64,000 nucleotides of DNA from a virus. Taxonomy: Duplodnaviria; Caudoviricetes. Made by a program: the position numbers and the translations under genes. Positions 780 to 9,286 of the stretch are shown here, in pieces. The notes below the pieces were generated by a model that was not told where the DNA came from, ran no database searches, and saw only the letters and a program-made list of their open reading frames with translations. Position 1 is the first letter of the stretch; the number at the start of each line of letters is the position of its first letter. The stretch spans positions 66,139-130,138 of IMG/VR virus record IMGVR_UViG_2974518066_000001. One strand, given 5' to 3'.

Positions 780-857
780 CTGGGTGTAGCGCAGTCCGGT
801 TAGCGTGTGCGGTTCGGAGCCGTGAGGTCGTAGGTTCAAATCCTACCATCCAGACCA
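780..857 (+). tRNA. tRNA-Pro(CGG)
   Basis: cloverleaf, loop TT-CGG-AG, encoded CCA. Confidence 0.92.
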
Positions 858-865
858 TTTTCAGT

Positions 866-943
866 GCCAGTGTAGCTCAGCCCGGTAGAGCAGGAGGCCC
901 ATACCCTCTTTGTCGGTGGTTCAAATCCACCCGTCTGGCACCA
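866..943 (+). tRNA. tRNA-Met/Ile2(CAT), atypical
   Basis: loop CC-CAT-AC (C33), bulged acceptor stem, CCA. Confidence 0.8.
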
Positions 944-950
944 GTTCTTA

Positions 951-1089
951 GAGGTAACGCCGGTTCGAGCCCGGCTCGCCCGCCCAGCTGGTGATCGTCT
1001 AGTTTCGTAGGACGCCTCGCAAGGGAAACGTCGGTTCAAATCCGGCCCGCCCGTAGTTTAGGGTGGTCGTCTAGTGGTTAGGACGCCCT
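951..1089 (+). ncRNA. tandem circularly permuted tRNA-like modules (YrlA/Y-RNA-like architecture)
   Basis: two units of T-arm, loop-closed acceptor stem, D-arm, closed by GAGG/CCTC and AGGG/CCCT. Confidence 0.65.
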
Positions 1090-1131
1090 GTAATTCGGTC
1101 CAGGTATCCGTCAAATCGGATGGACCAGCGG

Positions 1132-1206
1132 TGGGGATTAGCTCAGCGGTAGAGCAGCCGTTTTACATGCGGCCGGTCGGCGGTTCGATCCCGTCATCCC
1201 TAACCA
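1132..1206 (+). tRNA. tRNA-Val(TAC)
   Basis: cloverleaf, loop TT-TAC-AT, CCA. Confidence 0.92.
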
Positions 1207-1208
1207 AC

Positions 1209-1283
1209 GCCTCGTTAGCTCAGCGGTAGAGCGCTGCTATGACATGGCAGATGACGGTGGTTCAAACCCATCACGAGGCACCA
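1209..1283 (+). tRNA. tRNA-Val(GAC)
   Basis: cloverleaf, loop AT-GAC-AT, CCA. Confidence 0.92.
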
Positions 1284-1287
1284 TTTT

Positions 1288-1555
1288 GAGACCCGAGGTA
1301 AAGGGATGTGAGGCGTGCAAGAGCCACGCGCTTTAGAAGCCCTGATCCTTGCGACGGTAGGCTCACGTCGCACCAGTTAGACCAAATCCGTGGCGGATGC
1401 TGCGGCCACCCGCGAGAGTGCGGTAACACCGGAAGGCCAGAGGGCGGTGGCGGTTAGTTATTCGAGGTTGGGCCTGTCGGACGCGGCAGGTAGGAGATCG
1501 CATAGCCCGGCTGTTAACCGGCGGTCCTATACGGACGTGTGAAGCTCCACCCAGC
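1288..1555 (+). ncRNA. unassigned structured RNA containing a tRNA-Asn anticodon stem-loop copy
   Basis: multiple hairpins; GCCCGGCTGTTAACCGG also present in tRNA-Asn. Confidence 0.5.
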
Positions 1556-1630
1556 GGGGATGTAGCTCAGAGGTAGAGCACCCGTTTTGCAAGCGGAAGC
1601 GCGTCGGTTCGACTCCGACCATCTCCACCA
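1556..1630 (+). tRNA. tRNA-Ala(TGC)
   Basis: cloverleaf, G3:U70, CCA. Confidence 0.93.
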
Positions 1631-1764
1631 GTTTAGGACGGCGAGTGGCCCGGTATTGGTCCGGGCATCAAATGGACTGCGGAGCGGGGAACTATCGCCT
1701 ATCCCGCCCGGTCATGCGAGGACAAAATGGAGCGTGGCGCTCCTACTCGCAACGCCACACCTGT

Positions 1765-1846
1765 TTGGTAGTGACAGAGTGGTAATGTGCCCGGCTGTTA
1801 ACCGGTGACCCGAAAGGCGGTGGTTCGATCCCACCCTACCGAACCA
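1765..1846 (+). tRNA. tRNA-Asn(GTT) with long variable arm
   Basis: loop CT-GTT-AA; CC-GAAA-GG variable stem; CCA. Confidence 0.85.
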
Positions 1847-1847
1847 T

Positions 1848-1924
1848 AGCGGTGTAGCTCAGCCCGGTAGAGCAACCGACCGATAATCGGTGTGTCGCAG
1901 GTTCAAATCCTGCCATCGCTACCA
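1848..1924 (+). tRNA. tRNA-Ile(GAT)
   Basis: loop CC-GAT-AA (C33), CCA. Confidence 0.9.
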
Positions 1925-1946
1925 GTTTCTCGAAAGGACCCGACCC

Positions 1947-2453
1947 TTGAAGAAGATGTTCGTGATGGCGGCTGCGGTAGCCTCAATGCTCGTTGCTGCC
2001 TGCGATCGACAGCCTTCTGCTGCCGAGCGCTGCATGGAGGCCAAGAACCCGCAGGAATGCTATCAGGTGGCAAACGCTGGTGGCGACATCAACGATTACC
2101 TGATCGGTGGCCTCGGCGGTTACATGCTGGCGAAGGTCATGAGCGGCGGGCGGCAGCAGACCGTCATCGTGCAGAACCCGAATTATCATGGGCCGCGCCG
2201 ATACGTCCCCAGCTACGCTTCCAGCCGTCAGCGCGTCCTCAACGGACAGGTCAAGACGGTCAGCACCACGACCACGAAGCGCGGCCTGTTCGGGTCGAAG
2301 ACCACCACCACGACCAAGACTTTCGGCTCCAAGCCTGCCAGCTCGTGGGGCTCTTCCTACTCGAAGCCATCCAAGTCTTGGGGCTCGTCGTCCCGGTCCT
2401 TCTCTTCTTCGCGGTCGTCCTTCTCGTCGCGATCTTCGTTCCGGCGCCGCTGA
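1947..2453 (+). CDS. lipoprotein, DUF1190-like, Ser/Arg-rich tail
   Basis: TTG start after AAGGA; lipobox-like LVAAC; Cys pair, GGLGGYMLAK helix, SSR-rich C-terminus. Confidence 0.7.
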   Translation: MKKMFVMAAAVASMLVAACDRQPSAAERCMEAKNPQECYQVANAGGDINDYLIGGLGGYMLAKVMSGGRQQTVIVQNPNYHGPRRYVPSYASSRQRVLNGQVKTVSTTTTKRGLFGSKTTTTTKTFGSKPASSWGSSYSKPSKSWGSSSRSFSSSRSSFSSRSSFRRR

Positions 2454-2488
2454 CAATCTAGGGTTGGTGAATTATTTCACTAACCCTA

Positions 2489-2517
2489 TTGACAGTTAAA
2501 GTAACTTCCGTTACACT
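2489..2517 (+). promoter_or_regulatory. sigma70 promoter of tRNA operon 2
   Basis: TTGACA-N17-TACACT. Confidence 0.85.
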
Positions 2518-2571
2518 CTCCGCATCATGAGCCAATCGGCTCTCATCAGTTTCAGAGAAAAGCTCACCACC

Positions 2572-2631
2572 ATGTTCACCCGGTTTGGAAAACGAGATCG
2601 CCGAGAAGGCGAACGAGGTTTTAGCCTCTAA
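2572..2631 (+). CDS. attenuator leader peptide 1 MFTRFGKRDRREGERGFSL (in-frame upstream ATG at 2527)
   Basis: core made only of K,G,D,E,R,F, matching downstream tRNAs; followed by antiterminator/terminator. Confidence 0.8.
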   Translation: MFTRFGKRDRREGERGFSL

Positions 2632-2668
2632 CCGGTAGTGTGCCTTTTGCTGCCGGTGCTGTTTTAGC

Positions 2669-2744
2669 GGATCGGTAGCTCAGTAGGTAGAGCAGGGGAT
2701 TCTTACTCCCAAGGTGGACGGTTCAAGCCCGTCTCGATCCTCCA
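2669..2744 (+). tRNA. tRNA-Lys(CTT)
   Basis: loop TT-CTT-AC, U73 discriminator, CCA. Confidence 0.88.
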
Positions 2745-2765
2745 AGACAGCATCGGAAGTTTTAG

Positions 2766-2801
2766 ACACCCTACCGGACACCCGGTGGGGTGTTTTCGTT
2801 T
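2766..2801 (+). terminator. intrinsic terminator (attenuator) after first tRNA of operon 2
   Basis: ACACCCTACCGG/CCGGTGGGGTGT stem plus TTTCGTTT. Confidence 0.8.
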
Positions 2802-2816
2802 GCGCTTCTCGGCTTC

Positions 2817-2892
2817 GGGCCGGTAGCTCAGTAGGCAGAGCAGGGGGCTTTTAACCTCAAGGTGGTCGGTTCAAGCCCGACCCGGCTCACCA
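2817..2892 (+). tRNA. tRNA-Lys(TTT)
   Basis: cloverleaf, loop CT-TTT-AA, CCA. Confidence 0.92.
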
Positions 2893-2900
2893 GTTTCAAT

Positions 2901-2975
2901 GCAGGCGTCGTTCAGACGGTAGGACACCTCCTTGCCATGGAGGAGACGCGGGTTCGAGACCCGCCGCCCGCTCCA
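2901..2975 (+). tRNA. tRNA-Gly(GCC)
   Basis: cloverleaf, U73, CCA. Confidence 0.92.
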
Positions 2976-2987
2976 TCATTCACCTTT

Positions 2988-3064
2988 GGTTCTGTAGCTT
3001 AGCTGGTGAAAGCGCCGGGTTGTCAACTCGGAGATCGCGGGTTCAAGTCCCGTCAGAACCGCCA
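2988..3064 (+). tRNA. tRNA-Asp(GTC)
   Basis: cloverleaf, G73, CCA. Confidence 0.93.
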
Positions 3065-3065
3065 T

Positions 3066-3140
3066 GGGGCGTTCGTCTAGCGGACAGGACGCTGGCTTCT
3101 CAAGCCGGAAGCAGGGGTTCGATTCCCCTACGCCTCACCA
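3066..3140 (+). tRNA. tRNA-Glu(CTC)
   Basis: cloverleaf, loop TT-CTC-AA, CCA. Confidence 0.92.
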
Positions 3141-3148
3141 GTTCACAT

Positions 3149-3224
3149 AGCGCCATCGTCTAGCGAGCAGGACACGTTGGCTTTCACCCTTCGGACGCGG
3201 GTTTGAATCCCGTTGGCGCTGCCA
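3149..3224 (+). tRNA. tRNA-Glu(TTC), distorted anticodon stem
   Basis: loop CT-TTC-AC, tandem U.U mismatches, T-loop TTTGAAT, CCA. Confidence 0.75.
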
Positions 3225-3250
3225 GTGAACAGTTATGAAGAGAGTTTCGA

Positions 3251-3325
3251 GCGACATTAGCTCAGCGGTAGAGCGGCGGTTTTCCAGTCCGCGCGTCAGG
3301 AGTTCGATCCTCCTATGTCGCTCCA
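3251..3325 (+). tRNA. tRNA-Gly(TCC)
   Basis: cloverleaf, U73, CCA. Confidence 0.9.
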
Positions 3326-3334
3326 AATTCTCTT

Positions 3335-3410
3335 GGCCCGGAAGCACAACTGGACGTGCGCTCCGCTACGAACGGAAAGGTTGTGGGTTCGAGTCCCACG
3401 CGGGCCTCCA
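3335..3410 (+). tRNA. tRNA-Arg(ACG)
   Basis: loop CT-ACG-AA, CCA. Confidence 0.9.
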
Positions 3411-3415
3411 TTTTC

Positions 3416-3490
3416 GGTGAGGTAGCTCAGAGGTAGAGCGCCGGTTTGAAAAGCCGGGCGTCGGTGGTTCGATCCCGCCTCTCACCACCA
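3416..3490 (+). tRNA. tRNA-Phe(GAA)
   Basis: cloverleaf, loop TT-GAA-AA, CCA. Confidence 0.93.
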
Positions 3491-3497
3491 GAGGTTT

Positions 3498-3854
3498 ATG
3501 CAAGACGAAATCGAACGAAAGCGACGAAACAGCGCGGCCCACTATGCGAGAAATCGGGAGGCCGTAAAGGCTAAGTCGAGGGCAGCAAAGCCTCTACGCC
3601 GAGCTGCCTGTCACCAGTTCGTCCTAGAGTATTTGCTTAATCACCCTTGTGTCGATTGCGGCGAGGACGATCCGATCGTTTTGGAGTTCGACCATCAACG
3701 AGACAAGAGCTTCGCGATTTCTGATGGAGCCCGAGCCGGGTATAGCCTCAAAAAGCTAGAGGCAGAGATCGCAAAGTGTGAGGTTCGCTGTGCCAACTGC
3801 CACAGACGGAAAACCTACCGGGAGCGCGGATTGGAAAATCGCACCATCCATTAA
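3498..3854 (+). CDS. HNH endonuclease
   Basis: CVDCG..LEFDH..CEVRCANCH motif. Confidence 0.88.
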   Translation: MQDEIERKRRNSAAHYARNREAVKAKSRAAKPLRRAACHQFVLEYLLNHPCVDCGEDDPIVLEFDHQRDKSFAISDGARAGYSLKKLEAEIAKCEVRCANCHRRKTYRERGLENRTIH

Positions 3855-3862
3855 AATAGTTA

Positions 3863-3891
3863 TTGACACTAACCTATAGTTCGGTTATCAT
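3863..3891 (+). promoter_or_regulatory. sigma70 promoter of tRNA operon 3 (probably leaderless transcript)
   Basis: TTGACA-N17-TATCAT, ATG 8 nt after the -10. Confidence 0.85.
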
Positions 3892-3898
3892 TCGCACC

Positions 3899-3967
3899 AT
3901 GTTCACACAGACCACCTTGCTTACGCAGTGCCATTATTGGCAACTGCTATCGAGTTCATCCCTCTAA
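3899..3967 (+). CDS. attenuator leader peptide 2 MFTQTTLLTQCHYWQLLSSSSL
   Basis: core made only of S,Y,L,T,H,Q,C,W, matching downstream tRNAs; same start and end context as leader 1. Confidence 0.85.
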   Translation: MFTQTTLLTQCHYWQLLSSSSL

Positions 3968-4001
3968 GGGAGTGGTTCTGACGCGCCACTCCCCGACCTA
4001 C

Positions 4002-4090
4002 GGAGGGTGGCTGCAAGAGGTGCGTAACCGGTCTCGAAAACCGGGCTGGGGTTAGGAGCCCTACGGGTTCGATCCCTGCACCCTCCGCCA
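4002..4090 (+). tRNA. tRNA-Ser(CGA)
   Basis: class II cloverleaf, G73, CCA. Confidence 0.88.
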
Positions 4091-4097
4091 AGTTTTT

Positions 4098-4138
4098 AAG
4101 CGTCTGCGACCACTCGGTCTCAGGCGCTTTTTCGTTTT
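4098..4138 (+). terminator. intrinsic terminator (attenuator) after first tRNA of operon 3
   Basis: AAGCGTCTG-GACC/GGTC-CAGGCGCTT stem plus T-tract. Confidence 0.8.
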
Positions 4139-4154
4139 GGAGATTTTGATTTTC

Positions 4155-4238
4155 GGGAGGGCTGGGCACGAGTGAGCCCACACGCCTGTAAAGCGGACGC
4201 GAAAGCTGTGAGGGTGCAAATTCCCTCACCTCCCACCA
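4155..4238 (+). tRNA. tRNA-Tyr(GTA), atypical
   Basis: loop CT-GTA-AA, variable stem, T-loop TGCAAAT, CCA. Confidence 0.8.
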
Positions 4239-4243
4239 TTATT

Positions 4244-4328
4244 GGCCCGCTGGTGAAATGTAGACGCACTCGCCTCAGAAGCGAGCGACCGAGAGGTCAT
4301 CCCGGTTCAAATCCGGGGCGGGCCACCA
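4244..4328 (+). tRNA. tRNA-Leu(CAG)
   Basis: class II cloverleaf, CCA. Confidence 0.92.
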
Positions 4329-4333
4329 TGATC

Positions 4334-4418
4334 GGGGATGTGGTGAAATAGGTAAACGCAGCGGGTCGAGAGCCCGCCGCCTGATGGCTTGAGGGTTCAA
4401 GTCCCTCCATCCCCACCA
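4334..4418 (+). tRNA. tRNA-Leu(GAG)
   Basis: class II cloverleaf, loop TC-GAG-AG (C33), CCA. Confidence 0.88.
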
Positions 4419-4449
4419 TGATTATCACGCATCTCAGATGCGCCAGAAT

Positions 4450-4523
4450 GCCCGGTTAGCTCAATGGTAGAGCTACGCCGTCGTAACGCGAGGACGAGGG
4501 TTCGATTCCCTCACCGGGCTCCA
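4450..4523 (+). tRNA. tRNA-Thr(CGT)
   Basis: cloverleaf with mismatched anticodon stem, CCA. Confidence 0.82.
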
Positions 4524-4537
4524 TGCAGGTCTCAGGT

Positions 4538-4611
4538 GTGACCGAGGCAGAGTTGGATCATGTGCCGGGTCGTGATCCCGGATACGGCGGGTTCGAGCCC
4601 CGCCGGTCACC
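4538..4611 (+). tRNA. tRNA-His(GTG), no encoded CCA
   Basis: loop TC-GTG-AT (C33), GTGACCG/CGGTCAC acceptor. Confidence 0.82.
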
Positions 4612-4631
4612 CCTAAGCCCTGCAAGGCTAT

Positions 4632-4705
4632 TTCCCGTTCGTTCAATGGTAGGACGCCCGGCTCTGAACCGGGAGATCGAGGTTCGAGTCCTTGACGGGG
4701 AACCA
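4632..4705 (+). tRNA. tRNA-Gln(CTG)
   Basis: U1:A72 cloverleaf, CCA. Confidence 0.92.
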
Positions 4706-4720
4706 GATTTATCCGCACAC

Positions 4721-4807
4721 GGAGAGTTGCCAGAGCGGTAATGGGCTGGCTTGCTAAGCCAAGACAACCTCACGGTTGCGAGGGTTCGATCCCCTCACTC
4801 TCCTCCA
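4721..4807 (+). tRNA. tRNA-Ser(GCT)
   Basis: class II cloverleaf, CCA. Confidence 0.9.
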
Positions 4808-4815
4808 TCATCACT

Positions 4816-4889
4816 GCCGCCTTGGCCGAGTGGCAAGGCTCCGGATTGCAACCCCGGCATCTCCCGTTCGATCCGGGAAGGCGGCTCCA
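4816..4889 (+). tRNA. tRNA-Cys(GCA)
   Basis: cloverleaf, U73, CCA. Confidence 0.9.
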
Positions 4890-4893
4890 TCAT

Positions 4894-4969
4894 ATCTCCA
4901 AAGCATTAAGGGGCGATGCACCGGTCTCCAAAACCGGCAAGCTGGGTTCGAGTCCTAGTGGAGGTGCCA
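4894..4969 (+). tRNA. tRNA-Trp(CCA)
   Basis: loop CT-CCA-AA, G73, CCA. Confidence 0.9.
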
Positions 4970-5133: not shown

Positions 5134-5165
5134 CGCCGCCGGGTTAATTCCCGGCGGCTTTTTTG
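5134..5165 (+). terminator. intrinsic terminator ending tRNA operon 3
   Basis: GCCGCCGGG/CCCGGCGGC plus T7. Confidence 0.88.
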
Positions 5166-5309
5166 TGCTAATTCGCCTAGAATGATTCGGCAAGGGCGTA
5201 TCTTCTGGTCATTGACTTTTTCGGCATTTTGCTCTATGATCCGGCGTTCTGCATCCGTCTTCGAGGGTGCGTCTCCTCCACATCGTTATCACCCTCACGA
5301 GGACCCATC

Positions 5310-5764: not shown

Positions 5765-7396
5765 GTGGCAACAATCTTTGCCAAAGACGATCTGATTGTC
5801 GATGCCACCGCCAGCCTGAATGGGCGGGTGGCGGAGATCGGCGGATCATGGGTCTCTGTTTCTGGCACCAGCTCGGGGCTTGGCGGCACGAGCGGGACCA
5901 TGGGCGTGTATCTGAATCAGGGCGCTCGCTCGACCTCTACCACTTCGCCCGGTGTAATCGCTTACTTGTCGGACCCGGCGCCTGCAGATGACATTGTTCT
6001 GTCTTGGAAGTCCGGCTACTTCGGCACTTCCGGCGCTCCGGGTGTGGCCTTCCGTGTCAATGGCACGTCAGGCTACCTACTGCAGCTCGCGCAGACTTTC
6101 ATCGTCCTCTACAAGACTGTTGCCGGTTCGCGGAAGACGGTCATCCAGCAGACGGGATTGTCGCCTCTCAGTCCCACCAACGCTTTTCACGACTACGAAT
6201 TGCATGTGAAGGGTGGCCGTCTCAGCCTTTATAAAGACGGCGCCCTTTTCTGGGAATATGAGGACGCAGACGCGCCACTTCTGACGGCGGGTAACGTCGG
6301 CCTCTTCATTCGCGGCGATGGTCGCACAACAAATTTCCTAGCCTACGTCCCGGACGGCGAAATTGTCGTCGGCTCCCCTGAATCGGCGGGCTCCTCGGAG
6401 GCCGCTTTCGCCGGTGAGAAGTTCGTAGCGGGGTCGATCAGCTCAGCAGGCACGACGCCGACCGCCTACATGCAGTCGGCGACCTACCGCGTCGGCGAGA
6501 TGCGAAACGCTAACGGCGAGTCAAACGCTCGCTTCGACGCTATCGCTCTCATCACTGCCCAGATGTATGCGCTGGCGCAGGCTCCTGAGCCAGACTTCCA
6601 TAGCGTCGGCTTCTCCGCCACGACCGGTGCCATGGATGGCGCAGGGACCACGGTAGCTGCGTTCGTTGGTCGGGCTACCATGTCGGGCGATATGGCTGGT
6701 GCTGGCGTTACCAGTGATGCTATGGTCTCTCGCGCTTTCGGACAGGGCGAGGGCGAGTTCTCGATCGGCAGCGGCGGCACCTCGGCGGCTGCGTTCACCG
6801 CTCAGCGGATCGTCAGCGCTCGGATGCAGTCGGAGCCAAAATACGACGGCGACTCCTTCAAGTTTGTCGGCGGGCGCACGATCGAGGCTTCGTTCCTTTC
6901 GGAAGGCTCCAGCACCGCAGGCTTCACCGGTTACGTCGCAGTGCGGATCGAGGCCGCTGGCTCCTCGACTGCCTCGTTCGCTCCCACTGATGTCACGATC
7001 CCGGCGACCTTCTCGGCTGTCGGTTCGTCAGTCGGCGCTCTCAAGGAGCTGGAGTTCGCGGTAACGCGCTTCGGGCAGGTAGGCGCCCTCGGCTTCGGTC
7101 GCATGGTGGGCGTATCTGTCACCGGCGGCGCCATGAAGTCGCAGGGTGCTTCGATCATGTCGGGCTGGGCAGGGGCGACGATCTTCTCTAGCGAGATGGG
7201 GGCGGAAGGCTCCATGCGTGGTCGCATGGTCTCGCTCTCGTTCAGCAGCAACATCCCCACACCGGACGATCGCGTCTCCTTCCTCCCGGCCGAGGATCGA
7301 ACCGCTGTCCTTGAGGTCGAAGATCGGGAAGTGCTTCTCCCGGTTGAAGACCGCGAAATCCTCCTCCCGGCCGAAGATCGGATTGCATACCTATGA
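5765..7396 (+). CDS. tail fibre/head decoration-like protein with lectin-like N-terminal domain
   Basis: 543 aa, G/S/A-rich repeats, C-terminal (L)PxEDR repeats, structural gene context. Confidence 0.6.
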   Translation: MATIFAKDDLIVDATASLNGRVAEIGGSWVSVSGTSSGLGGTSGTMGVYLNQGARSTSTTSPGVIAYLSDPAPADDIVLSWKSGYFGTSGAPGVAFRVNGTSGYLLQLAQTFIVLYKTVAGSRKTVIQQTGLSPLSPTNAFHDYELHVKGGRLSLYKDGALFWEYEDADAPLLTAGNVGLFIRGDGRTTNFLAYVPDGEIVVGSPESAGSSEAAFAGEKFVAGSISSAGTTPTAYMQSATYRVGEMRNANGESNARFDAIALITAQMYALAQAPEPDFHSVGFSATTGAMDGAGTTVAAFVGRATMSGDMAGAGVTSDAMVSRAFGQGEGEFSIGSGGTSAAAFTAQRIVSARMQSEPKYDGDSFKFVGGRTIEASFLSEGSSTAGFTGYVAVRIEAAGSSTASFAPTDVTIPATFSAVGSSVGALKELEFAVTRFGQVGALGFGRMVGVSVTGGAMKSQGASIMSGWAGATIFSSEMGAEGSMRGRMVSLSFSSNIPTPDDRVSFLPAEDRTAVLEVEDREVLLPVEDREILLPAEDRIAYL

Positions 7397-8176: not shown

Positions 8177-9056
8177 TGGCCCGCCGTGCCGTTATCGTCC
8201 GCGCTTCTTAGCGCGGGGCGCCGGGCCACATTTTTAGAAAGGAAGTTGTTGGATACGGAACTTGCCTACCTTGCTGGGTTTCTTGACGGAGAAGGCACGA
8301 TAGGTTTGTTCAAGACTTCTGGTGCCAATGCGTTCAAGGTGCCGTGTATTTCGGTGTCCAGCACGGATAGGTATCTTCTGGATGCTTACGTCCATCGTTT
8401 CGGTGGACACATCCAGACCAAGGCGAGCAAACGGCCTGAAAATCATCGGCAAGCCTATGAATATCGCTTGCGTGGTCCTAAGGCTATTTGCGCGATTTCG
8501 GAGTTGTTTCCGTATTTACGCCACCACGTCAAGCGCGCCAGAGCGACGATGATCTTGGAGCACTTCACCAAGATCACTAAGCGCAACGGGAAATACACCG
8601 AAGCTGAGCGCGCTATAAAGATAAGGTGGGAAGAGTTATTTCTCAGCTTGTCATCGCGAGGTGGCGATGCTTGGACAAGGGATTACCAGCAGTTCGCTGT
8701 TGGTGATGATGATCGTAATTCGGACGATTGAGGACGCGCACGGACCGGGGAGCGTTACCCCGCACCTCCACCATTGCTGCTGAGCGCGAGGCTCAGAACT
8801 TCGGAGACACGGCGGTATCCAACCCGCAGGGCCTCAGTAGCATTGATGGGGGTGAAGTAGGATCGACGTGCAAGGCTGAGAGAAGGACGCGATCGGTTTG
8901 GGTGCTGCCCCTTATGCGGTGCCAAGGCTTTAACTGCCAACGACAATGATGTTGTCACTGCGGAAGTGCGCCTCGCGGCGTAACCCGAGAAATTCCTGAG
9001 CCTTCAACAAGCTCAGGTGCGGACTGGCCCACCGAGCAACAGGACGGGCCACATTT
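8177..9056 (+). ncRNA. ssrA: permuted two-piece tmRNA (acceptor piece 8177-8773 interrupted by HEG; coding piece from 8848), tag ANDNDVVTAEVRLAA
   Basis: CACCTCCACCA 3' end lies before GGGGGTG 5' end, G3:U70, TAACT-GCC-AAC-GAC resume site, tag ends LAA. Confidence 0.9.
8186..8731 (+). CDS. LAGLIDADG homing endonuclease (likely start TTG near 8246)
   Basis: LAYLAGFLDGEG motif; AAGGAAG RBS; lower GC than flanks. Confidence 0.88.
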   Translation: MPLSSALLSAGRRATFLERKLLDTELAYLAGFLDGEGTIGLFKTSGANAFKVPCISVSSTDRYLLDAYVHRFGGHIQTKASKRPENHRQAYEYRLRGPKAICAISELFPYLRHHVKRARATMILEHFTKITKRNGKYTEAERAIKIRWEELFLSLSSRGGDAWTRDYQQFAVGDDDRNSDD

Positions 9057-9286
9057 GAGGCAGGGGCCGATCACAACCTCCCCTGACCGCTCGCTGTGTC
9101 CCCGCGCAGCCGTGATCGGTCTCTTCCTCAACTGTGACAAATTTAGGTGAGGAGCCGTGGCTGCAATCGCGGTGTTTTGCAGGACCGACCGACACAACTG
9201 GACAGTCCTCACCTGATCATCTCTGCAGGGTTTCCCGTTCCCTGCATGACAGCCGGGCGACCCATGTCTCCCCCGAAAGCCCGGCG

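Follow-up and report, generated by a model that had tools for sequence, protein, structure and literature searches.

An element of about 280 nucleotides (nt) in the transfer RNA (tRNA) region of Sphingobium phage Lacusarx is probably a ribosome-mediated, leader-peptide transcription attenuator, which would gate a phage tRNA operon by means of an antiterminator helix closed around a whole tRNA. This element, hereafter the leader-2 unit, occupies positions 3863-4138 of the window, that is, the complete 64,000-nt stretch of DNA analyzed here, which begins at base 66,139 of the 130,138-base pair (bp) IMG/VR record IMGVR_UViG_2974518066_000001. Its short open reading frame (ORF), leader 2, draws almost exclusively on amino acids whose tRNA genes stand behind it, and our analysis suggests that the phage probably makes this tRNA block only when ribosomes decode the leader codons slowly. 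Beyond the single unit, we favor a broader picture, in which the 20 amino acids are shared out over three tRNA operons in an alphaproteobacterial phage lineage (Lacusarx, the Erythrobacter phages XM05 and vB_EliS-L02, and uncultured relatives), each operon having a codon-matched leader that feeds decoding speed back on tRNA transcription. The antiterminator would enclose a tRNA in two of the three units, and the arrangement would be the first case of attenuation control of tRNA genes.

Architecture of the leader-2 unit

The tRNA span of the published Lacusarx genome, 66,918-71,107, corresponds to window positions 780-4969 (PMC5648845). ARAGORN and Rfam detected about 25 tRNA genes on the plus strand of this interval, and the leader-2 region lies inside the array. 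It is made up of the following features.

3863-3891, plus strand: sigma-70-type promoter (-35 TTGACA at 3863-3868, 17-nt spacer, -10 TATCAT at 3886-3891; 11/12 consensus)
3899-3967, plus strand: leader-2 ORF, 22 codons and TAA, predicted to be leaderless, with the transcription start predicted at or next to A3899
3925-3947, plus strand: ORF-internal hairpin P2 of the minimum free energy (MFE) fold, with a 9-bp stem, one bulge and the loop UUAU
3968-3993, plus strand: hairpin P4, with 5' arm 3968-3975, loop UUCUGACGCG 3976-3985 and 3' arm 3986-3993; -16.8 kcal/mol
3970-3984, plus strand: candidate antiterminator strand A (P4 5' arm and loop), complementary to 4100-4115
4002-4090, plus strand: tRNA-Ser(CGA), called by ARAGORN, with a long variable arm and 3' CCA; upstream of the terminator and enclosed by the predicted antiterminator helix
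4098-4138, plus strand: intrinsic terminator T, with 5' arm 4098-4111, loop 4112-4115, 3' arm 4116-4129 and a T-run to 4138; -20.5 kcal/mol
4156-4243, plus strand: unverified tRNA-Tyr(GUA)-like gene, the position of which matches the called tRNA-Tyr of vB_EliS-L02
4244-4969, plus strand: putatively gated block of tRNA-Leu(CAG), Leu(GAG), Thr(CGU), His(GUG), Gln(CUG), Ser(GCU), Cys(GCA) and Trp(CCA) (ARAGORN, Rfam)
5135-5167, plus strand: strong operon-closing terminator with nine G-C pairs and TTTTTT

The promoter is the best of seven promoter-like sites in 4 kb, with 1.3 such sites expected from shuffled sequence. An earlier note, written from the letters of this DNA, had placed the -10 hexamer close upstream of the ATG, and this placement holds: 7 nt separate the two elements, and the A of ATG 3899-3901 is the eighth base past the hexamer. 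Hairpin P4 directly adjoins the leader-2 stop codon. The same note had assigned two mutually exclusive partners to segment 3970-3984, and we found both, the local hairpin P4 (-16.8 kcal/mol) and the duplex with 4100-4115, which reached -22.2 kcal/mol and was equalled by 1 of 300 shuffled strands. Everything described for the interval was indeed present; however, the tRNA-Ser(CGA) gene between hairpin and terminator had gone unmentioned. For this tRNA, the best member of the Rfam clan was the long-armed tRNA-Sec model (35.3 bits, under its threshold). Terminator T, a 14-bp hairpin at 4098-4129, was overlooked by a simple terminator scan because of one internal mismatch. It divides the operon into one tRNA in front and nine tRNA or tRNA-like genes behind.

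The first of the nine, the Tyr-like gene, has a weak anticodon stem and the T loop UGCAAAU instead of UUCRANU. ARAGORN did not call it even with relaxed settings, and the Rfam tRNA model gave a sub-threshold match (11.3 bits, E=8); the gene is kept in the relative L058 with a compensatory change in the T stem. Past the closing terminator, the next promoter-like site on the strand lies at 5212.

Leader codons mirror the downstream tRNA genes

Leader 2 encodes MFTQTTLLTQCHYWQLLSSSSL. After the initiator Met, 20 of its 21 residues fall within the set S, Y, L, T, H, Q, C and W, the sole exception being one Phe, and this set equals the amino acids of the tRNA genes following the leader. Across 235 background ORFs of similar length in all six frames, the mean in-set fraction was 0.37, and in 20,000 shuffled versions of the ORF, the leader's composition was never equalled. 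The match extends to codons: those in leader 2 cover all ten anticodons of the block (9/9 ARAGORN-called tRNAs when the Tyr-like gene is left aside) and one of the nine anticodons of the neighboring block, and among 50,000 random 21-codon pieces taken from the phage's long open frames, none covered at least nine of the block anticodons.

Homologous units, described below, behaved in the same way, with 7/8 to 13/13 of the tRNAs behind the terminator having a cognate codon in their own leader. The tRNA that usually stays uncovered is the sole one preceding the terminator, Ser(CGA). Its codon, UCG, occurs in 2 of 11 tabulated leaders, which does not support UCG as a specific sensor for the embedded tRNA-Ser(CGA).

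The peptide does end in four different Ser codons (TCG AGT TCA TCC CTC TAA), as the earlier note had observed. These codons are not the specific sensor, as all eight amino acids of the block are sampled; the Ser ladder stands as one part of a longer checklist. The earlier interpretation is thus partly supported, being right in kind and too narrow on the Ser ladder.

Conservation across related phages

Pattern searches of viral and metagenome contigs returned 12 distinct units, from Lacusarx, XM05, vB_EliS-L02 and nine uncultured phages. One of the search patterns was anchored on tRNA and terminator alone, leaving leader and loop unforced; it still recovered the complementary core shared by P4 loop and terminator that is described in the next section. 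The layout is common to all 12, and the embedded tRNA sits in the same position in every homolog, either as Ser(CGA) or as Ser(UGA).

The -35 hexamer is invariant, and in 12/12 units the distance to the ATG is exactly 36 nt from the first base of this hexamer and 7 nt from the -10. The 7-nt spacer between the -10 and CATG is variable and pyrimidine-rich in all units and contains no Shine-Dalgarno-like motif, and in the consensus fold the first ~17 nt stay unpaired. In Alphaproteobacteria, mRNAs without a leader are frequent, and their translation is efficient (PMC4117421).

The ORF of each unit has 22-27 codons, contains all eight amino acids and has 81-100% of its residues in the set, and the ORF lengths (69, 78, 81 or 84 nt) differ only by multiples of three. 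Despite this variation, the stop codon stands 0-3 nt before P4 in all 12 units, and a one-base loss at the junction of ORF and P4, turning TAA-G into TAG, retained the stop. The order of residues changes among homologs, as in L173 (MLTHTTLTTTLWHYCQQQSSSL) and L026 (MFTQTLLSLTGTTLWHYCQQHLSSSL), while the composition is kept, which points to selection on the decoded content rather than on the peptide as a product. Comparison thus supports the combination proposed in the earlier note, a predicted leaderless start, a putatively translated sensor ORF and a mutually exclusive set of hairpin, candidate antiterminator and terminator, which is conserved in the 12 units.

RNA structure and the candidate antiterminator

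Covariation in the family supports the two hairpins. Taking P4 and the terminator together, 10 of 22 pairs have changes on both sides and 94% of the cells are paired, a result that none of 500 shuffles reached. P4 accounts for eight pairs, 100% paired and four with changes on both sides; the terminator accounts for 14 pairs, six of them with such changes. In L173 the P4 stem is entirely rewritten around an unchanged UUCUGACGCG loop, and in the terminator the stem base GCGUC(A/U)G is conserved below a variable upper stem. The ORF-internal hairpins P1 and P2 show compensatory changes in the family as well, with P1 (loop CUUACG in relatives) shrunken in Lacusarx through a deletion. Selection on structure, which the earlier note had argued for, is borne out by the covarying P4 and terminator; structure is not the sole target, as codon content is selected too.

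In 10 of 11 aligned units, the loop core CUGACGC finds its complement, GCGUCAG, where the terminator 5' arm begins its stem; across the 11, the core is 97% paired and both strands are invariant. Because loop and stem base are invariant while neighboring stem positions vary freely, the alignment argues for a sequence-specific constraint on both. In the window, the predicted antiterminator helix is lengthened by a further 7-bp stretch (3970-3976:4109-4115). The P4 loop contains CUGA, which we take to fit the YUNR U-turn motif known from the loops of fast-pairing antisense RNAs.

As a separate observation, both P4 arms look similar to the tRNA-Ser acceptor stem that follows them, and the 5' arm in L038 contains the exact first seven bases of that tRNA; mimicry, shared ancestry or a role in the switch may underlie the likeness.

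Several other candidate pairings were discarded. A trp-like 'segment 1', in which ORF codons 4-6 (CAGACCRCC) pair with strand A, covaries between the window and XM05; it was dropped since neither L173 nor the L020 clade preserves the pairing. Neither the pairing that RNAalifold placed between ORF codons 5-7 and the tRNA 5' acceptor strand nor the one that the MFE fold of the window placed between the terminator 5' arm and CAGAC/GCUUA of the ORF was conserved, and each is a folding artefact or unexplained. A comparison of whole-transcript MFE values without a tRNA constraint misfolded the tRNAs, produced an artefact of +15 kcal/mol for the L020 clade and was superseded by the constrained calculation given below.

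Two further leader classes

The mirror was then tested as a prediction, namely that the other promoter-proximal small ORF should match its own tRNA block. The unit containing this ORF, attenuator 1, lies upstream in the array.

2489-2800, plus strand: attenuator 1, with promoter 2489-2517, leader ORF core 2572-2631, hairpin 2631-2657, tRNA-Lys(CUU) 2669-2744 and terminator ~2766-2800 (terminator position read by eye from the sequence)

The leader-1 core encodes MFTRFGKRDRREGERGFSL, in which 15 of 18 residues come from K, G, D, E, R and F, and it precedes tRNA-Lys, Lys, Gly, Asp, Glu, Glu, Gly, Arg and Phe. It was found in six further phages (seven in total), with all six amino acids present in each. 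Again, a hairpin stands at the stop codon, and its 5' arm is complementary to the terminator 5' arm (CACCCTACCGG). In relatives, the leader-1 ORF has a 5' untranslated region of ~60 nt and is hence not leaderless there. The sequence of the leader-2 unit had been described as unrelated to that of attenuator 1; this is correct for the switch segments, which differ, but both ORFs start with ATG TTC AC and end with CTC TAA.

A third class, leader 0, consists of leaders made of P, M, V, A, N and I, which stand before a Pro/Pro/(Met)/Val/Ile/Ala/Asn block in four relatives.

L306, 611-697: leader-0 ORF rich in N, V, I, A, M and P
L057, minus strand, ATG at 7162: leader-0 ORF of the same composition
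L009, 4210: leader-0 ORF of the same composition
L055, 1548: leader-0 ORF of the same composition

In vB_EliS-L02, leader 0 reads MFNVIAMNNPAPAIMVPVAMACVEGTRD, with long runs solely of N, V, I, A, M and P. This class has the classical 1:2 / 2:3 / 3:4 geometry of an attenuator and no embedded tRNA: an ORF-internal 1:2 hairpin covers the sensor codons, and segment 2 pairs with the terminator 5' arm when the 3' arm is absent. A leader 0 ahead of block A was not found within the Lacusarx window. Together, {P,M,V,A,N,I}, {K,G,D,E,R,F} and {S,Y,L,T,H,Q,C,W} contain each of the 20 amino acids exactly once, and the three tRNA blocks divide them in the same way.

Proposed mechanism

In the mechanism that we consider most consistent with these data, transcription would begin on the A of AUG 3899 or beside it, yielding a leaderless mRNA, and a ribosome would translate the 22-codon checklist ORF, calling on the downstream Tyr-like, Leu, Leu, Thr, His, Gln, Ser, Cys and Trp tRNAs. 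The stop codon abuts P4, and strand A, with its core CUGACGC, is complementary to the terminator 5' arm just behind tRNA-Ser(CGA). Judging from the anatomy, a ribosome terminating at the stop would cover the P4 5' arm and the first loop bases. Under fast decoding, the ribosome at the stop would mask strand A, the terminator would form and only tRNA-Ser(CGA) would be made. If the ribosome were delayed on hungry codons, strand A would stay free, and the displayed loop could nucleate pairing with the terminator 5' arm across the folded tRNA; the terminator would be blocked, and RNA polymerase would continue into the remaining tRNA genes. We infer the transcription start, translation of the leader, regulated read-through, its polarity and a ribosome effect exerted ~130 nt later.

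Switch energetics were computed for 11 units with the tRNA acceptor stem enforced and the transcript ending just before the terminator 3' arm. P4 and the loop-terminator pairing differed in free energy (ddG) by -2.4 to +5.4 kcal/mol and are thus near iso-energetic in the model, a balance that would suit a switch.

The layout of the operon bears on read-through. Between terminator T and the end of the block, no promoter-like site was present on the window strand (up to 5212), nor in 9 of 10 other units. The nine downstream genes therefore need passage of T or transcription from upstream, and terminator T is therefore not absolute. Public RNA runs contained 5-8% of the words of the stretch, mostly from tRNAs of other organisms. 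A freshwater metatranscriptome contained an exact 191-nt contig (depth 16.8) spanning 4083-4273, which crosses T, the Tyr-like gene and the start of tRNA-Leu. It is a weak hint of read-through RNA, as carry-over of DNA into the library is possible; a near-identical phage is present in that sample.

Several observations weigh against the proposed attenuator. Under strict wobble, 11-12 of the 21 leader-2 codons are readable by tRNAs that Lacusarx encodes, while the remaining ones (ACA, ACC, UUG, CAA, CUA, UCA) match isoacceptors found only in relatives. With about half of the leader codons matching isoacceptors of relatives only, a loss of tRNA genes from Lacusarx is suggested. Over its first 15 nt the ORF hardly varies, even at synonymous sites, which indicates that RNA-level constraint also acts on the ORF 5' end. 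The antiterminator core never varies, and because both strands are invariant, covariation is neutral, speaking neither for nor against the pairing; moreover, the heptamer of the window is GCGUCUG, which places one U-U mismatch in the core. At equilibrium, P4 plus terminator (~-37 kcal/mol) is favored over the antiterminator (~-22 kcal/mol), and with the tRNA folded, P4 stays in the MFE structure at every simulated ribosome position. RNAfold cannot represent P4 and a kissing contact between loop and terminator together, so these folds understate that state. About 130 nt, or 2-3 s of transcription, lie between the stop codon and the terminator. Finally, the competitor of strand A, the P4 3' arm, is located downstream of A, and a stalled ribosome therefore cannot free strand A in the manner of trp. 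The polarity consequently rests on analogy and biological logic: because the block-specific mirror makes biological sense and leader 0 has the classical geometry, we infer that fast decoding leads to termination and slow decoding to read-through.

The opposite polarity is unlikely in our judgement. Here, a ribosome at the stop would melt P4, the freed 3' arm would pair with the 5' acceptor strand of tRNA-Ser and strand A would capture the terminator 5' arm, so that good decoding would give read-through and stalling would give termination, a private 'stringent control' that would shut off tRNA synthesis whenever charged tRNA or amino acids ran short. The pairing it calls for is available in 11/11 units (-10 to -16 kcal/mol between P4 3' arm and tRNA 5' acceptor strand) and is exactly the one that the antiterminator state adopts in the window and in XM05 when folded without constraint; the P4 arms of the L020 clade are near-copies of the tRNA acceptor stem, and the terminator forms in folds when P4 is undisturbed. 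However, this state sacrifices folding of the embedded tRNA, leader 0 of the relatives has the classical geometry in which a stall gives the antiterminator, and the block-specific mirror, needed by negative feedback, is not required by positive coupling.

Slightly less likely still, the leader could be translated without controlling termination, the terminator being merely leaky and translation or structure affecting instead 5' end protection, processing of the pre-tRNA by RNase P or RNase E, or access of Rho. Leakiness is required anyway, as the downstream tRNAs must be expressed, the antiterminator core lacks covariation, and P4, resembling a tRNA acceptor minihelix, could be a processing signal. 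Such a leader would not account for a stop codon that is always placed at the base of P4 (12/12 units), for the invariance of P4 loop and terminator stem base amid changing stem positions, or for attenuator 1, which repeats the layout of promoter, ORF, hairpin, tRNA and terminator with unrelated switch sequences.

That the leader is a non-coding structured RNA or small RNA, with open frame and composition incidental, is very improbable: P1, P2 and P4 do covary, the 5' end is invariant at the nucleotide level and frame +1 is open too in most members, but the compositional mirror holds at P<1e-4 in each of several diverged members and recurs in two other leader classes, the ORF changes length in threes and keeps its stop despite a base loss (TAA G to TAG), and residue order changes while composition is kept.

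Relation to known systems

Leader attenuators of enterobacteria include multivalent examples, such as the thr leader (Thr and Ile) and that of ilvGMEDA (Ile, Leu, Val), besides trpL, hisL and pheL (for pheL, PMC3082878). To our knowledge, all described leader-peptide attenuators control enzymes of amino-acid biosynthesis or a synthetase. The latter case is the pheST attenuator with its pheM leader, which governs the phenylalanyl-tRNA synthetase of E. coli; like the leader-2 unit, it aims leader-peptide attenuation at the translation apparatus rather than at biosynthesis, but its target is a synthetase gene, a single amino acid is sensed and no tRNA is embedded in it.

With the enterobacterial systems, the leader-2 unit shares a short ORF rich in codons for the products of the operon, an intrinsic terminator with a mutually exclusive antiterminator, which in the leader-2 unit is a predicted one, and a stop codon placed such that a terminating ribosome would mask the antiterminator strand. 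In contrast to them, it would control tRNA genes instead of biosynthetic enzymes, and it samples eight amino acids, mostly once to a few times each, rather than in runs. Further differences are the predicted leaderless start, the complete tRNA gene inside the predicted antiterminator helix and upstream of the terminator, and the position of the antiterminator's competitor, which lies downstream of the strand and not within the ORF. Because the regulated genes are tRNAs, the unit is best described as a variant form of leader-peptide attenuation and not as a member of a described family.

The trn L-array of Anabaena sp. PCC 7120 comprises 26 tRNA genes that are silent until translation is impaired (PMC8421152), and its repressor TrcR binds direct repeats over the -10 and start site (PMC10272220). 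Both phage and cyanobacterium combine an accessory tRNA array with an rtcB ligase, and expression in Anabaena answers translational stress. The Anabaena array differs in relying on a protein repressor, and neither paper mentions a leader peptide or attenuation (PMC8421152, PMC10272220). It is the nearest published functional analogue.

T-box riboswitches bind uncharged tRNA directly, without need for translation. The proposed leader-2 mechanism would likewise answer tRNA status by transcription antitermination, but it would do so via translation, and leader sequence 3892-4001 matched neither the T-box nor any other Rfam family (E<=1). In full-text literature searches, we found no account of leader-peptide control of tRNA genes, and the genome papers of Lacusarx (PMC5648845) and vB_EliS-L02 do not mention leaders or attenuation.

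If the proposed attenuation is correct, these phages would gauge decoding speed by codon class and replenish only the tRNAs that are scarce, providing a natural sensor of decoding speed for several amino acids at once. The usual view of phage tRNA arrays is that of constitutive supplements to codon usage; regulation of this kind would bear on why large phages carry tRNAs and on how they cope with host defences that cleave or deplete tRNAs. It would also extend the attenuation principle to RNA genes, to eight amino acids, to leaderless messages and to an antiterminator reaching over a folded tRNA. Being self-contained and ~280 nt long, the element could act as a compact natural sensor of tRNA supply.

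Surroundings of the array

In addition to its tRNA genes, Lacusarx carries rtcB, tadA and a transfer-messenger RNA (tmRNA) (PMC5648845). The tmRNA is of the permuted, two-piece alphaproteobacterial type and was located by ARAGORN and Rfam at window positions 8681-9074 on the plus strand, with the tag ANDNDVVTAEVRLAA; in vB_EliS-L02, a tmRNA likewise closes the same tRNA array.

Two ORFs on the plus strand lie within the array. The first (1890-2453), lying between tRNA-Ile and attenuator 1, encodes a Ser/Thr-rich protein of 187 amino acids with a weak, sub-threshold match to DUF1190. The second (3498-3854; 118 amino acids), between tRNA-Phe and the leader-2 promoter, combines paired CxxC motifs with a DH...N pattern, recalling HNH homing endonucleases, and had no Pfam match (E<=0.01). 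As the promoter follows directly after tRNA-Arg(UCU) in relatives, this ORF looks like a Lacusarx-specific insertion.

At 867-939 (plus strand), Rfam reported a tRNA match of 41.4 bits that ARAGORN did not call; read by eye, its anticodon loop contains CAU, which makes it probably a tRNA-Met or Ile2 gene. The gaps of the array at 940-1131, 1284-1555 and 1631-1764 (plus strand) contain T-arm-like motifs, with weak YrlA-like Rfam matches nearby, and may represent further structured RNAs or degenerate tRNAs.

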